The notes: generated from the sequence alone by a model not told the origin. A stretch of DNA of 64,000 bases from Tricharina praecox (GCF_024521635.1 NW_026250433.1:1-64000); one strand, 5' to 3'. Shown: positions 2,153 through 28,644, counted from the first letter of the stretch. A program made the numbers and translations.

Positions 2153-2373
2153 ATCAGGCAACTTGACGGTGTGCGTAAGGGCAGCTACCCAGTGGAAAGC
2201 TTCTGTAAGTGCCCACAACATGTGGCGCCGCGCCGCCGTCAGCCACTGGTGCGTGAGTGTTGGTAGACTTCCTGTAGAGTAATGGTACCCGTATTGTGCC
2301 TCTGGTTTCAGAGCCGGATCCCTGGTAGCGAGTATACGAGAAAACATTCCGGTCTGACCACAGAGAAGGTGGC

Positions 2374-2433
2374 GAAGAAGAAGAAGAAGAAAAAGAAGAA
2401 GAAAAAGAAGAAGAAAAAGAAGAAGAAGAAGAA
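2374..2433. repeat. (GAA/AAA)n trinucleotide microsatellite
   Basis: About 20 GAA/AAA units. Confidence 0.95.
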
Positions 2434-2880
2434 GCGTCTCTTGAGTCTTGAGTACGACTGGTAGGGTTGCCAAGATCGTATCTGCATGGACGGGAGGTTC
2501 GGTGTCCCCGTAAGAAGGGCGGGAATCTTCAAGAAAGAGCAAAGTAGAGTACTCTACTAGAGTACCTACCCTGTTGTGTAGCCTGAAAGTCTCATGTAGC
2601 GAACAAATCACAGCCTTCAAATCCTGTGTGACGGTTCCGAAGGCTGCGTTTATACATGAACTGGCAGCTACACGAACCCGAACGAGGAACCAGAGGCGCC
2701 TACATAATAACTAACAGACAGTCTAAGTAGACTTTGGTCCCCGTGCGCCTCATATTCTGGTCCTTGGCCATGGCGATCATTCCAGGCCTGGAAATGGGGG
2801 CTGGGATTCGTGTCGACAGTGAAAATATATGTTGAGAGGAGACCCGTCTCCTACCGTACACCGCAGTGTCGCCCCGGCTC

Positions 2881-3683
2881 ATCCCCTAGTAAACGGCAGT
2901 CCCTTATTGATGCGTTTGTCCGTTCCATTCAGCAACATTTCGGACTGTACTTGATACGAGCGATACTGGATGTCGAACAGCCCCGCCACCGTGGTGTTCT
3001 CGCTCGTAGCACTTTGCCAGATGTCGAAAATACCCGCGGGAATTTCTGCGGTCACATCTAGATTTGGCCCACGGGTATTCGTTCCATTTGCGGTCCTTCC
3101 CGGCGGCCACGACTGTCCCGGGCACGGCATCGAAAACGCGCCACACAGCCGCGTGAAGCCGTACTCATCCCTCTCGGGAATGCCGACACCGAACGGGCCA
3201 TCGTCGCGCACATACTCGAAGGGGCGGACCCTCGAGTGCTTCCCCGCAATCTGCTCTGAGAGGCCGAGAGGCGTGACTACTCCGGCAATAGCCAGGAAAA
3301 CTAGCCCGAGTGCACTGAATATCCGCAGCGCGGTCACCCGTCCGTTCACGTTGTGGAAGTTGGTCGAGTCCGCGGACAGGATCGTCGGCCAGAACGTGGC
3401 GTGCACGAAGCGGCAGACGACGGACCTAAGGAGCTTAGAGGTTGATCGACATCGGGCTGCCGCCGGATGCAAGCACGTACCATGTTGCGGCCGTGTTGCC
3501 TTTGTTGAGCACTCCGGCTAGGACAAATACCAGCAGCAGTGGAAACGTGATTTGAGCTTCGGATTCGGTCGGGTCAGTCCTGGGTACATAGTCGTCGGGG
3601 ATGGTGAGATGGAGCGAGTACAGACCGATGAGGATTGCAAAGTTGATGGCACCGGACACTTGACCAACCGTGATGTCGGTCAT
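2881..3683 (-). pseudogene. 5' part (codons 1-226) of a fungal multi-TM membrane protein gene, lying in an inverted segment
   Basis: Exons 3683-3626, 3556-3481, 3425-2881 with canonical GT/AG introns: MTDITVGQVSGAINFAILIAQITFPLLL...NTAATWSVV...AGVVTPLGL...GLFDIQYRSY...LPFTRG, then TGA right at the breakpoint. Confidence 0.85.
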
Positions 3684-3700
3684 CTTGCTGCAGAGAGGCT

Positions 3701-5347
3701 CCTTCCGCATGTTCGATTCGCTGGCTTTGAATAACAGATACGGTATCATCGAGGGCCTAGTTGTTGACACCATAAATGGCGGCATCGCATTCCGTAATCA
3801 TACCATCCCCACAGGACTCTCGCAGGGCGGCACATGGAAGGAAGACCTGCTTTGGGTCACGCCGGACACCGAGTGCGTCAACATGAACTTAACGCTCGAG
3901 TTCGTGATGCGAGGAGAGCTCGGCGGGCCGGGGCACTACGTCACCCTGCGGGATAACGGGGGGTTCAAGAACTTGGTCAAGGACTATCAATACATCGATC
4001 TTAACGATACGCAGGCTCGACCGACACTTGCGGGCCGCGCCTGGAAGGCCGCTTCGTTCAATAACCTGCTGTTGATGAGGTACTTGAACTTGACACGTAC
4101 CGGAGTGATACCCGAGACCTTCAATATGACCGGTGAGCTGGGAAAGGCCCGGTTGGATCCGTATCAGCTTCGCATGCACGATACCGGCCTTAATCCTCTG
4201 CCAGGACTGCCATTCAACGATGAGCTCGACACCGGTAAGCCTAGGTTCTACATACTACCGTGTATCCTTGTATGTGCTTTGATGCTGATGAGCGTATGGG
4301 GATAGATGCCATTGCGGAAGGATATGGAGGTGCAGACATCGCCAGCATCAACCGTATCGCAGCGAAAGTGGGTCTCTTGATGGGCATGGCCAGCCCTCTC
4401 GGCAACAACATTGCGGCTTCGATACGGCGAGAATCCAACACGAACTGGAAGCAACCGCTCTACGTCTGCGCCTCCGCACTGAAGGCTTCGGTGCAAGAGG
4501 TGACCTTCGCCGTCAACGGCAGTTCCATCTCCGACATCCAAGTCATGGACGTTTCCAAAACAGCCCGAGTGAGACTCTGGGCAGTGGAAGACAGCGGGTA
4601 TGCCATCGCCAACATAGACCCAATGTGGGGACTAGTCTCGGACGAGTGGGAGGACGCACCGGGCTGTCAATTCTCCGCAGCGACCGACTGTACCTCCCAG
4701 CCGGCGCGGGAGGAACCTTCTCCAGCGGCATCTCATACCAGCCGGATGCGATGGCCGGCACCCACGGGCTGCTCACCGTTCTGAGCGAAACATACACAAA
4801 AGTTCTGACCGTCGGCGCGCTTTCCGCGCCCGAATACCTGCCGGACTACACCGACTTCGTCAGCTACCCGATGTACACACGGTGGCAGAACCTGTCGAAG
4901 AGCACCGAGTCCGCCACACTAATCTTCAACCTCCTCTGGACGGACATCGCCGCGAGCCTGGTGACGGGCAGCAAGCCTCATCTCGCATCATCATCAACAG
5001 CATCCGCTGACCCCTCGCGGCCTGTCCTCGTCTTCGAGCGTCGCATCAAATACGACCTCCGCTACGCGATCCCGGCGATGCTCTTCGCGGCGCTATGGCT
5101 GGTCCTCGGGATCGCGTTCCTGCTCGTCCTGCTGTTCGCTGGCACCAGAGTTGCGCATATCACGCAGCTGCTCAATCACACCGCCACCGGAAGGGTCGTC
5201 ACGAACATCGTCGCTCCGGATATGGCCCCGCCTGGGGCGCCGACAAAGGAGTGGGCGAAATCCGCCGGCGTGATGAGTTTTAGGCTGGAGAGTGAGAAGG
5301 TTGCCGTCGAGAGGGTGGAGGGGTGCCTGCCGGCGAAAGGGAGTTAG
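3701..5347 (+). pseudogene. 3' part of the same membrane protein gene (about 751 aa if restored)
   Basis: (S)FRMFDSL...EGLVVDTINGGIAFRNHT...WKEDLLWVTPDTECVNMNLTL; intron 4235-4305; 1-nt frameshift at ~4661-4663; C-terminal TM (YAIPAMLFAALWLVLGIAFLLVLL); stop at 5347. Confidence 0.85.
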
Positions 5348-5779
5348 GTTGCGTACTTATACTTGGTTGGAAGGGGCGGATTTAATAAGATGAGATGTGG
5401 TGCGGCATCCAACGGTAACCAGTGGCCGTGGCCGTGGGAGGCAGGACGGATACGGTATAAATCGCTTATGTAGCGCAAGATATTCAGAGTAAATAAATGA
5501 TCCCAAAGCTTTAAATGTGGTCACTCCCGCCGCAAATGTTCATATGTACTCACTCACTACTCAGTCAATGAAGGCAGGTGGCAATGGGTGGTTTCTGTCA
5601 CCATGGATTTATATTTGTTGAAGTATTTGGGTAGAGAGATGGTGATATTCTATTCGGTACAGAAAGAAGTAGATACTGGTATTGCAATATCTCCATCTGA
5701 TTCTGGGATGGTGGATGGCTGAGAACCTATGTAGTTCGAAAGTCTGGGGAAATCGGACCACCCTCTCGGAACCGAATGC

Positions 5780-24391: not shown

Positions 24392-26849
24392 TCAAAACTC
24401 AGGAGTATCATAAGTCCCCTCCACATCCTCTCCGTTCGCCATGATGTACTCCCTCGTTTCATCGATCTTCTTCTGTAGCTGCTTCAGCAGATCATCCTTC
24501 CGGCCGGACTCTACGCCCGCCTTTTCGACCGCGTGCATGGCGACGTGGTAGCGGCTGACACCGTTGACGAGCAACATATCGAACGGCGTCGTTGTCGATC
24601 CTTGGGGCATTCATCAGCAAATCCATTATCCGTCATCTCAGGAGACGAGCCGGGGACAAACCTTCCTCCCTATACCCAGCCACCACCATCCTCTCGGCCA
24701 CCCTGTGCCGTCCAAACACCAATCCGGCAACATCGTTGACATAGCCGTGATAGTTCACGACGATTCCCTTATCACTCGTGAAGAGCTCATCGAACCCCTC
24801 GTCGGACAGCGCATGCGGATGGCTTCCGGTCGGCCCGAGCACCATCAGATCGGTAACGTTGACGACGCGCACTCGGATCTCCGGCGCCAGCTTCCGCAGC
24901 AGCGCGGCTGCGGCGACAACTTCGAACGTCACTTCCGTTCCGATGCCGACCAGGACCACGTCGGGTGATTCTACCGAGGCAAACTTCCACGCCGATGCGC
25001 CGGCGCGGCAGTGGGCGTCCGCCGCTTCGGGCGAGAGCCAGACGGGCGTCGGCTGTTTACTCCCGACCATGAGATTGGTGTAGTTCTTGCTGTTGAGGCA
25101 GTGGCGCATGGTGGAGAGGAAGCAATTCGCGTCCGGCGGGAGGTATACGCGGGCCATTTCCGGCTTGAGGTTCAGCACCGCGCCAATAAACGACGGGTTC
25201 TGGTGCGAGAACCCATTGTGCTCCTGCCGCGTCCACGTCGAGGTCTCGAGGTAGTTTATGCTCGCGTTCTGGTTGCGCCATGGCACTTCTTTGGCTAGCT
25301 TGACGAATTTGGAGTATTGTACCATCATCGTGTGCACTATGCCCAGGAAGCTCTCGTAGCTGGGGAAGAGCGCGGTGCGCCCCGTCAGCGTGTAGCCTTG
25401 GAGCAGCCCCTGGCACGTGTGTTCGCTCAGAATCTCGATCACCCGCCCGCCTTTGGCGCGGGAAAATTCGTCCCACTGGAAGTTTCGGCCCGTGTGGGAG
25501 AGCACAGCGGAGAGTTTGTTGCTTTCCAGCTCGTCGGGGGAGAAGATGCGGATTCCCTTCGGGTTGGAGGTGAAGACTTTATCGAGGTACTCGCCCACCA
25601 CTTTCATGGACGACGCCTGGCTGCCTTTTTCGACACCGAAGGAACGCCAGTCCGGTGCGCCGATAGGGTTGTACCCGTTGTAAGTGTCTTTCAGTTGGCC
25701 GATCGGTTGAGTGGGGATGAGATCCAGGATTTCCTGGACGGGGGCACCAGAGTCGTCGAACAACGTAGCGGGATCGTACGACCGCAGCCATCTCTGCACC
25801 ACTTGCCGTCCTTCGTTGTCCTTCTTCGCGTCCGGGATCGGGACCTGATGGCTGTGGAAGCTGCCCTCAATAAACTCCCCCTTGTACGTCTTTGGCCCCG
25901 TCCACCCCTTCGGCGTCCGCAAGATCAATACTGGCCACCTCGGTTTCACGATCGGGGTTCCCTCCCTGGCCGTCTTCTGGATCTTCCTGATCTCCGCCAC
26001 TGCCCAGTCCATACTGGCCGCCATGTCGGCATCAACTTCGTCCAACACCTCACCTACAAACCTAACCTGATATCCATAGCCGGTAAACAACGCAACGAGC
26101 TCCAGATCATCCATACACCCATAAATCGTCCTCTCGCTGATCTTGAACCCATTGACATGCACAATCGGAATCACCCCGCCACTTTCCTTGGGATCGAGAT
26201 ACTTGGCCGCATGCCACGCAGTCGCTGTCGGGCCCGTCTCCGCCTCTCCATCGCCCACAACGACAGTAACCAGCAAATCGGGCTTATCCATCACCGCACC
26301 GAAGGCGACGGCAAGCGCATACCCCAGCTCTCCGCCCTCATGGATACTCCCCGGCACAAGCGCATTGATATGACTCGGGAAGCCCCCTGGCGTGGAAAAC
26401 CCCGTGATCAACGCCTCGAGCCCCTTCCTATCCCTCGAATATTGAGGATAGAAGTGCGCTAGAGACCCCTCCAGCCACAGCGAGGACAATATCCCGGGAG
26501 CGCCGTGGCCGGGACCAACGACGTAGATCATGTCGCAGCCCGTGTTCTTTACCACCCGGTTGATGTGCGCATATACCAGTGTCAGCCCGGGACAGGTTCC
26601 CCAGTGTCCGAGCAGCCGCGGCTTGATGTCGTCGGATGTCAGGTCAGAGGTGACCAGGACGTTGCGGCGGAGAAAAATCATCGCTGCGGCGATGTAGTTT
26701 GCTGCGCGGCGGAAGCTGCGCAGCGAGTGCGCTTCGGAGGGGGTCAGGGCATTTTCGAGGGGGAGCTTGACTGAGAGGCCGGCCAGTGAGGAAGGGAGGG
26801 AGGAGGCGAGCGGCGCCGGGTCGGCGTGGTCGATTACTTCACCGGGCAT
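24392..26849 (-). CDS. xfp: Xylulose-5-phosphate/fructose-6-phosphate phosphoketolase, 798 aa
   Basis: Exons 26849-24662 and 24600-24392. GHWGT, GPGHG, HEGGELGY, GDGEAETG (ThDP), SEH, RQEHNGFSHQ, EEGSTTTPFDM. Confidence 0.96.
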
Positions 26850-27113
26850 GTTTATTTTTCGCGGCCGTGGGTGGTATGTATTGGTGAGTTGGGTTTCAGT
26901 TCGCAGTCGGAATGGAGGGAGTTGTACGTTTTATTCACGGGTTTGAGGTATGGAGAATCGTAGGTACTCCGGAAGATTTGGCCTGGCGTTTGATATGACG
27001 TTGTTTCTCTATCTTTCGTGATCGACATCTTGATCGTCGTTTCATGTATTTGGCGCCGGCTTCCCGGAACCCCGGTCACGACACGGGACAGCACTCCATG
27101 CCGTATGTCAATC

Positions 27114-27121: not shown

Positions 27122-27276
27122 CTTGACGGCTACTCCAAGAATAGTTTCATAGTTGACGGAATATTTACACGCCTATCATTTAAGATACCAGGTAGAAATG
27201 ATAGCTTTAATTGTTCTCGGTCGCTGGATATTCACAGTAAGGTGCTCTTGACGAAAAATCAATACGATAATCCAGC

Positions 27277-28644
27277 ATGGCCGACGACGCAAAGCCCCAC
27301 AGTAAAAAATCCCGCCTCATCCTTTCCATCAATGCCGGGAGCAGCAGCGTAAAGCTCTCGCTATACTCAGCGACGTTCGGCAGTGAGCCGGCTCCGCTGG
27401 TATCCTCTTCCATATCGGGGCTTACATCTCCACCGGCGGTGTTCTCCTATACCCACGTCTCGTCACCAGATTCGCCCTCGAACATCAAGAAGCAAGAGCT
27501 GAAGGATATCACCTCGCAAGATGCAGCGCTGCAGCACTTCCTCGAGCACATGGCGGCCGACGGGGCGCTGAAGGAGCTCGAGAGCGGGAGCGATATCGAC
27601 CTCGTGTGCCATCGCATCGTCCACGGCGGGGATTTCGACAAAGCCATGGTGCTGAGCAAAGAGACGATCCGGGAGATTGAAGATCTGACCGAGCTTGCGC
27701 CTCTGTAATCACTCCCTCCCTCTCGCACTCCTCATGTGGCCCGTAACTGACGATGTTTTTTTGTTTGCAGCCACAACGCCCCCGCCCTCGCCCTCGTCCA
27801 CATCGCCATCTCACAACTCCCGCATGCAAAGAACATCGCCTACTTCGACACGACCTTCCACTCGACGCTCTCGCCGGCAGTGCGCAGCTACATGGTCGCG
27901 CCCAAGAACCCAAAGGTGCGCAAATACGGTTTCCACGGGATCAGCTACTCCTTCATCCTGCACTCGGTAGCCGAGTACCTCGACCAGCCCATCGAGGAGA
28001 CGTCACTGATCGCCCTCCACCTCGGCTCTGGCGTGAGTGCGTGCGCGATCAAGAACGGCGCTAGCATCGACACCTCGATGGGGCTGACACCGGCGGAGGG
28101 CCTGCCCGGCGCGACACGCAGCGGGACCGTAGATCCAACGCTGGTCTTCCACACGACGTCGTCGGCGTCGTCGCTATCGCGCGCGAGCACGAGGGATATG
28201 CATATCACCAAGGCGGAAGACGTGCTGAACAATCACTCGGGGTGGGCCTCGCTCGCGGGCACGACGGATTTTTCAGAGATAGTTGCTGGGTGGGAGAAGG
28301 GCGGTGAGAAGGAGACGTTGGCGTTCGAGATCGTCGTGGATAGGATAGTGGGATATGTTGGTAGCTACTGGACGAAGCTGGGAGGCGAGTGTAATGCCCT
28401 GGTCTTCTCTGGGGGGATAGGTGAGAAGAGCTGGCAGCTGCGTAGGGAGGTCGCCGCGAGGTGCGCTTGTCTCGGGTTCAGGATCGAGGAGAGGAGGAAT
28501 AAGAGTGCGGAGGACAGGGAGGGGACGGTTGTGGGCATTGGAGGGGAGAGAATGGCGGATGAGGGCGGGAAGGTTCTGGTCTGTAGGACGGATGAGGAGG
28601 GGTGGATGGCCATGGAGTGTGCGATGGATGAGAGGTTTTGGTAG
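27277..28644 (+). CDS. ackA: Acetate kinase, 433 aa
   Basis: Exons 27277-27704 and 27771-28644. NAGSSSVK, HRIVHGG, LAPLHN, FDTTFH, YGFHGISY, HLGSG, DTSMGLTP, FSGGIGE, TDEE. Confidence 0.96.

Follow-up and report, generated by a model that had tools for sequence, protein, structure and literature searches.

An 820-bp block of the Tricharina praecox genome lies in reverse orientation inside a gene, so that the beginning of the coding sequence is now on the minus strand and the remainder on the plus strand. We put the probability at roughly 85% that a homology-free, base-precise intragenic inversion with two breaks disrupted this gene and turned it into a pseudogene that is now decaying. The block occupies positions 2881 to 3700 of a 64,000-nucleotide stretch (NW_026250433.1:1-64000, hereafter the window). 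The locus would offer a clean natural example, in a fungus, of an intragenic inversion that is base-perfect and independent of homology, with the order of events still readable.

Layout and homologues of the divided gene

The minus-strand exons add up to 679 nt, which corresponds to 226 codons plus one base, and the remaining 525 codons are located on the plus strand from 3701 onwards (Table 1). In the present arrangement, the minus-strand frame runs ...ACT AGG GGA T and then meets a TGA at 2881-2879, and the plus strand from 3701 reads CC TTC CGC ATG TTC GAT.... When 2881-3700 was flipped back, the frame continued across the joint as ...LPFTRG-S-FRMFDSL..., and the edge of the block was 17 nt from the ATG (3684-3700). 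An initial annotation of this DNA had described the same exon arithmetic, the same two frame ends and an ATG 17 nt within the segment, all of which match the sequence. Its statement that flipping restores one reading frame held across the joint and failed over the full 751 codons in this strain, in which a base has been lost at 4661-4664. The ancestral nucleotide state was reconstructed by flipping the block in silico rather than observed. The 23 residues of intron 1 are absent from the homologues (residues 1-67 of Nex1 align to residues 1-44, and P0021 gave the same result), indicating that intron 1 is real.

Table 1. Features of the divided gene. Positions are counted from the first base of the window; X1 to X4 are the public runs described in the text.
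Feature	Position	Strand	Description	Basis
Inverted block	2881..3700	none assigned	820 bp; now runs on the minus strand from 17 nt of 5' UTR and the ATG through exon 1, intron 1, exon 2 and intron 2 into the first 545 nt of exon 3	sequence, homologue alignments, computed frame
Exon 1	3626..3683	minus	58 nt, ATG at 3683-3681	sequence; P0007 and P0021 begin alike
Intron 1	3557..3625	minus	69 nt, GTCTGT..CCGAAG, in phase	alignment and computed frame; 23 residues absent from homologues
Exon 2	3481..3556	minus	76 nt	computed frame
Intron 2	3426..3480	minus	55 nt, GTACGT..CCTTAG	sequence and computed frame
Exon 3, first part	2881..3425	minus	545 nt; last base T (2881) is base 1 of the split codon	
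Exon 3, second part	3701..4234	plus	534 nt; opens with CC completing TCC (Ser)	
Intron 3	4235..4305	plus	71 nt, GTAAGC..ATAG	absent from X2 and X3 contigs, present in X1 and X4 DNA contigs
Last exon	4306..5347	plus	TAG at 5345-5347	tblastn and computed frame
One-base loss (frameshift)	4661..4664 (GGG run 4661-4663)	plus	base missing from the window, X1 and X2; at this site X3 carries an additional G and X4 an additional A	
Six-G run	3958..3963	plus	X4 has five, an X4-specific frameshift	one contig, depth 5.13, possibly an error
Remnant of original 5' UTR	2869..2880	plus	X3 contig starts at 2869, X2 contig at 2872	
TATA-like ATATAT (putative promoter)	2825..2830	plus	~40 nt upstream of the RNA-derived contig starts	pattern only

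The two halves were searched separately, with exon P0001 as the query for the C-terminal half and exon P0003 for the N-terminal half. Among 821 candidates, the C-terminal half matched 14 proteins of 313-2000 aa at E ≤ 0.001. Its E values to family members ranged from 1.5e-33 to 2.1e-13, and the best non-self match was P0007 (55% identity, E = 1.5e-33). The N-terminal half matched 397 representatives at E ≤ 0.001 (205 at E ≤ 1e-10), mostly proteins of ~800 aa aligned at approximately residues 46-215. In BLASTP comparisons with 61 homologues of at least 600 aa, both halves matched in 60, with the N-terminal half always ahead of the C-terminal half; the sole exception, P0017, had no match to the N-terminal half. 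Exactly one residue separated the two alignments in all seven homologues that reach the joint (P0015, P0016, P0040, P0044, P0074, P0124, and P0156), which corresponds to the single split codon of the window (T at 2881 plus CC at 3701-3702, Ser).

A tblastn comparison of six homologues with the whole window gave the same two-strand colinear picture and found no second copy of the gene within the 64 kb. In P0040, for example, residues 45-225 matched the minus-strand stretch 3424..2882, and residues 225-358 the plus-strand stretch 3697..4104. The family consensus at the joint, ..NG..Y..G.YR.L......VEGLVVD...GG.GFRNHT.P, is matched by ..NGTDKRINKGLPFTRG-S-FRMFDSLALNNRYGIIEGLVVDTINGGIAFRNHTIP in the window, and the ..G-x-Y-R-x-L.. 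portion of the consensus crosses the joint, where the window has RG-S-FRMF. These alignments confirm that the two predicted halves are consecutive parts of one gene, the match being far beyond chance. The initial annotation had stated that both halves resemble consecutive parts of one membrane-protein family and had suggested a BLASTP search for colinear homologues. The resemblance was borne out, the family being one of Ascomycota, and the search returned such homologues, with a constant one-residue spacing.

As judged from its sequence, the predicted product is an uncharacterised Ascomycota membrane protein of ~750-800 aa that belongs to no Pfam family. Three family members and three pieces of the window had no Pfam match at E ≤ 1, and a search of the Atlas returned Ascomycota 'hypothetical protein' clusters and nothing else. 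Members of the family include P0007 from Pseudogymnoascus, P0012 from Lasiosphaeria hispida, and P0016 from Lecanicillium saksenae. The window copy shares with this family of ~800 aa the N-terminal helix, the motifs WPTIL, TPLGL, FDIQ.R, EGLVVD..GG.GFRNHT and PLWG, and the C-terminal helix, but differs from it in being split by the inversion and frameshifted, and its best relatives are only 45-55% identical. No intact close relative (>55% identity) was found; among proteins of 313-2000 aa, the only one more than 55% identical to the C-terminal half was the window's own deposited 537-aa model. No unflipped full-length protein was on record in the protein searches with either half, and searches of the JGI metagenome_contigs with P0003 and with P0001 yielded no relative.

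The AlphaFold model of the homologue P0023 (38 sequences; pLDDT 76.9, pTM 0.71) showed N- and C-terminal helices and a strand-rich middle. A Foldseek search of the PDB with the whole-protein model gave no matches at E ≤ 0.001, and VIA-align with the same model returned helical-bundle rows only, with Z ≤ 9.5, which is within the background for helices. In P0023 the break corresponds to a position near residues 240-245, within a strand region of the ectodomain with pLDDT of 81-85, and in this model neither half would form a complete domain.

The computed inverted homology at the breaks was 0 nt outward and 1 nt inward, in agreement with the 1-bp inverted microhomology noted initially. GGCTC occupies 2876-2880 and 3697-3701, that is, both present joints, again as first described. 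No inverted repeats flanked 2881 and 3700 among the 25 longest of the 30 inverted pairs found or in the breakpoint homology count, and repeat or transposon copies in opposite orientation at both breakpoints were not found, which speaks against ectopic recombination between such copies as the origin of the flip. The breakpoints had been described as free of transposons, which agrees with the absence of flanking repeats, the MITE-like copies of this region being 1-2 kb from the left break. No bases were duplicated at the breakpoints, and the joint had no additional residue relative to the homologues. The restored joints read GGCTC/AGCC and GGAT/CC, and each lies at most 1 nt from a short palindrome (GGCTCAGCC with 4-nt arms and GGATCC with 3-nt arms), as had also been seen before. 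Positions of these types make up 2.3% (4-nt arms) and 7.5% (3-nt arms) of the first 20 kb, giving a product of 0.0017 that is post hoc. The palindromes were noticed after the fact and are treated here as unexplained.

Several repeat-like elements are present to the left of the block. Two MITE-like copies of ~230 bp with terminal inverted repeats (CAGTGTTCGAYATAGTCC...) are located at 859-1095 and 1615-~1830; they are in opposite orientation, ~520 bp apart, and both lie on the same side of the block, upstream of its left break. A near-perfect hairpin at 2016-2152, with 52-nt arms that are 98% complementary and a 33-nt loop, may be a miniature transposon.

The flipped block in independent samples and the decay of the gene

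Six public runs contain the stretch, and four of them (X1 to X4, from three studies) were compared with the window over 2301-5400. All comparisons used contigs, not raw reads, and 2301-2442 was left out of the contig comparison as repeat. An (AAG)n-like microsatellite is located at 2364-2435, where the contigs seem to be cut. X1 is a soil metagenome flagged as a potential origin of the DNA, and X4 is another soil sample from the same study. X2 is from organism A and X3 from organism B; these two runs are not recorded as RNA, and the absence of the 71-nt intron from their contigs is our sole ground for describing them as cDNA-derived.

The X1 contig covering 2817-4404 had no differences from the window and bridged both joints. 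The right joint was bridged in its flipped form in all four runs, namely by this contig, by an X2 contig in which 2872-4233 is joined to 4305-5400, by the second of two X3 contigs (2869-3407 and 3500-4050), and by an X4 contig (3590-3772). At the left joint, the flipped form was represented by 64 letters in X1, 9 in X2 and 12 in X3, and X1 alone bridged it by at least 31 letters. The uncovered positions were 3408-3499 in X3 (including intron 2), 2780-3074 in X4 (including the left joint), and smaller holes. The only joint in any run was the 71-nt skip at 4233/4305, which is an intron. A strand-change joint was found in none of the four runs, although an orientation present in a minority could have gone unseen, since rare variants are lost from contigs. 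The flipped form is the only form in the public data examined and is fixed in all samples seen. Further X1 and X4 contigs matched the 31 nt at 5103-5133 alone and were unlike the sequence on either side; they may represent a related gene of another organism or a short repeat shared in the C-terminal helix region.

Differences from the window were found at 4854 in X1, at five sites in X3, and at 12 sites plus two indels in X4, indicating that these three are not copies of the assembly and represent other strains or samples. X2 had no difference from the window and may come from that very strain, in which case its independence would be technical, not biological.

A second lesion is present in the plus-strand half. 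When the block was flipped, the three introns were removed and one N was inserted at 4661-4664, the computed frame gave 751 codons and a stop, with no internal stops. Without a base at this position, the flipped-back gene of the window strain ends at a TGA at 4782-4784. The extra base of X3 (G) or of X4 (A) in either case gives Gly and an in-frame ..APG LSILRSD... Consistent with a lost base, residues 417-540 of P0025 aligned by tblastn to 4305-4658 and residues 541-757 to 4658-5329 in another frame, the two segments being contiguous in the protein.

Since the flip is common to all samples and the frameshifts are not shared by all, the flip preceded the frameshifts; its presence in every sample seen further indicates that it predates the split of the samples. 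The computed coding sequence has 13 distinct SNP sites, of which 11 were nonsynonymous, roughly as expected from unconstrained change, the SNPs and the X4 indel being small in number and read from single contigs with depths of 2.4-6.4, in which errors are possible. The gene has been drifting as a pseudogene after the flip, and strains carry different one-base frameshifts. Both half-frames remain stop-free, suggesting that the event is young or that some constraint persists.

Transcription and the deposited gene model

The X2 and X3 contigs are without the plus-strand intron at 4235-4305, indicating that they were derived from spliced RNA, and the X1 and X4 DNA contigs retain it. The X2 contig runs through the flipped block with both minus-strand introns retained, and the X3 contig retains the 69-nt minus-strand intron and has a hole over the other. 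The starts of these contigs at 2869-2872 are a weak hint of a transcript start, as contigs show neither start nor strand; the X1 DNA contig extends leftward past these positions. The splice patterns suggest that the old promoter, which is outside the block, still yields an RNA with an 820-nt antisense leader. On this RNA, 10 ATGs precede the annotated start at 3673, which makes translation of the C-terminal half unlikely. The minus-strand ATG (3683) and the first in-frame ATG of the plus strand (3709) are just 25 nt apart, leaving no room for a promoter of the N-terminal half. We infer that translation is improbable for both halves.

The plus-strand half is 100% identical to P0006, a 537-aa 'hypothetical protein BZA05DRAFT_174896 [Tricharina praecox]', which is composed of 3673..4244 and 4306..5347 joined via a 61-nt intron (4245-4305). 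The donor of this intron sits 10 nt downstream of the donor in the RNA contigs and was not seen in them. It shifts the frame by one and so offsets the lost base at 4661-4664, masking the deletion. P0006 is a chimera: its residues 191-310 are a wrong-frame, Arg/His-rich stretch. With the RNA-supported splice, the frame from 3673 runs for 346 codons before it stops at 4782-4784. The minus-strand half was represented in the protein library by a 175-aa ORF (P0020). The expectation that automated annotation would call two divergent genes here was half borne out, namely by the 537-aa model for the plus-strand half. As a lesson for annotation, adjacent divergent gene pairs that match consecutive parts of one family could be scanned to catch such cases.

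Origin of the inversion and comparison with known systems

In the history that we favour, one break would have occurred in the 5' UTR, 17 nt ahead of the ATG, and the other within codon 227. The 820 bp would have been rejoined in the opposite sense, every base being kept once and none added, and the ends would have offered no usable homology. The homology of 0 and 1 nt at the joints favours two double-strand breaks followed by blunt end-joining over a template switch. The promoter, left outside the block, would still fire, giving an RNA in which ~10 nt of the old UTR are followed first by the 820 nt in antisense and then by the C-terminal two thirds of the coding region. The gene would afterwards drift, with separate frameshifts arising in different strains. 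The clean gene-killing inversion, one of three explanations offered in the initial annotation, is supported by the colinear homologues, the independent contigs and the later strain-specific frameshifts.

The dead gene could also have arisen through a replication template switch, in which a stalled fork changes strand. Such an event would be compatible with the absence of lost or gained bases, and GGCT(C), common to both present joints, could have been used by the nascent strand. However, template switches of the FoSTeS/MMBIR type have microhomology of at least 2 nt at the switch points, and short template switches usually involve tens of bases, whereas the homology at the actual switch points was 0 and 1 nt and the block is 820 bp long. 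These values make the mechanism unlikely rather than refute it. A quite improbable reading is that the locus holds two working divergent genes, the minus strand encoding a short membrane protein from the N-terminal part and the plus strand a protein truncated at its N terminus. In favour of this, open frames persist on both strands, RNA is made from the locus, and each half is represented among protein sequences, by the deposited 537-aa model and by the 175-aa ORF in the library. Nevertheless, the RNA contig retains both minus-strand introns, the two ATGs leave no promoter room between them, and ten ATGs lie upstream of the annotated start. The RNA-supported splice truncates the plus-strand frame, the frameshifts vary among strains, and the break falls inside a confidently modelled strand region.

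Misassembly can create small inversions, and the window has long homopolymers, such as an uninterrupted run of 30 C at 646-675. An artefact of the deposited genome, the second of the initial explanations, is nonetheless refuted by the same arrangement in two soil metagenomes and two cDNA-like runs from three studies, with X3 and X4 carrying their own SNPs and indels, and its remaining probability is negligible. The third was a reversible or polymorphic ON/OFF switch, in which part of the cells or strains would have the ON form. A back-flip would restore the joint, the flip being base-precise; the restored joints are near short palindromes (with the post hoc frequencies given above), and a rare form could escape the contigs. 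We found no support for this reading and regard it as extremely improbable: the strand-change joint was absent from all four runs, no inverted repeats flank the block, and no unflipped full-length protein is on record. In addition, a back-flip in the window strain would still meet the frameshift at 4661-4664, X4 has a frameshift of its own, and nonsynonymous changes prevail among the coding SNP sites.

Recombinase or transposase families were not found at E ≤ 1e-5 in 85 of the 90 ORFs of at least 140 aa in the 64-kb window, the other five being the locus itself, and intron-split genes could be missed by this search. The neighbouring genes are metabolic (acyl transferase, short-chain dehydrogenase, multicopper oxidase, phosphoketolase, and acetate kinase). 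The phosphoketolase (XFP_N, XFP, XFP_C; 24636-26930, minus) and the acetate kinase (27271-28641, plus) form a head-to-head divergent pair. A flip that was not random, in which a nuclease, topoisomerase or transposase-like activity made paired cuts at preferred dyad-symmetric sites (GGCTCAGCC, GGATCC) and might still flip the block back rarely, is very improbable; if true, it would represent a eukaryotic intragenic inverton without inverted repeats. The end-joined inversion opens no new kind of biology, which would be the case only if the switch reading were true.

Invertons have inverted repeats at their ends. The available portions of a study of bacterial invertons, including intragenic ones, describe them as enzyme-mediated and reversible (PMC10028968). 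As in those systems, a block inside or before a gene has changed orientation here and altered the product. Unlike bacterial invertons, the present block is in a eukaryote, was seen in one orientation, and has neither inverted repeats nor a recombinase that we could find. We do not class the locus as an inverton: the searches for inverted repeats at the block ends and for a recombinase among 85 ORFs of the window were both negative, and the contigs of four runs, which could miss a rare second form, showed the flipped orientation alone.

In Drosophila, as far as described in the accessible parts of Ranz et al. 2007 (PMC1885836), inverted duplications were found at 17 of 29 inversions and repeats at 2 of 29, and under the staggered-break model the stretch between the staggered nicks ends up duplicated in inverted orientation. 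Consistent with the inversions reported there, the present one arose without repeats or transposons at the breakpoints. In contrast to what that model describes, nothing was duplicated here, the inverted homology was 0 and 1 nt, and a single residue lies at the joint.

Close parallels are in human disease genes, where gene-disrupting micro-inversions and intragenic inversions by non-homologous repair are described in the available parts of reports such as PMC7690134, PMC8421701 and PMC13484493. In both settings, a short intragenic piece is reversed, the rest of the gene and its promoter stay in place, the transcript is non-colinear, and the protein is, or here would be, lost. The present inversion differs from the cases described there in that it is found in a wild ascomycete, is fixed in the samples seen and lost zero bases, and in that its ancestral form would have to be read from homologues of at most 55% identity. 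Among the papers that our literature searches listed, none reported such an inversion in a fungus, and the titles and abstracts of those listed for the Tricharina praecox genome contained nothing on this locus, which does not show that no report exists. Gene-inactivating micro-inversion is a known kind of mutation, found here in an unusually clean form in a wild cup fungus.
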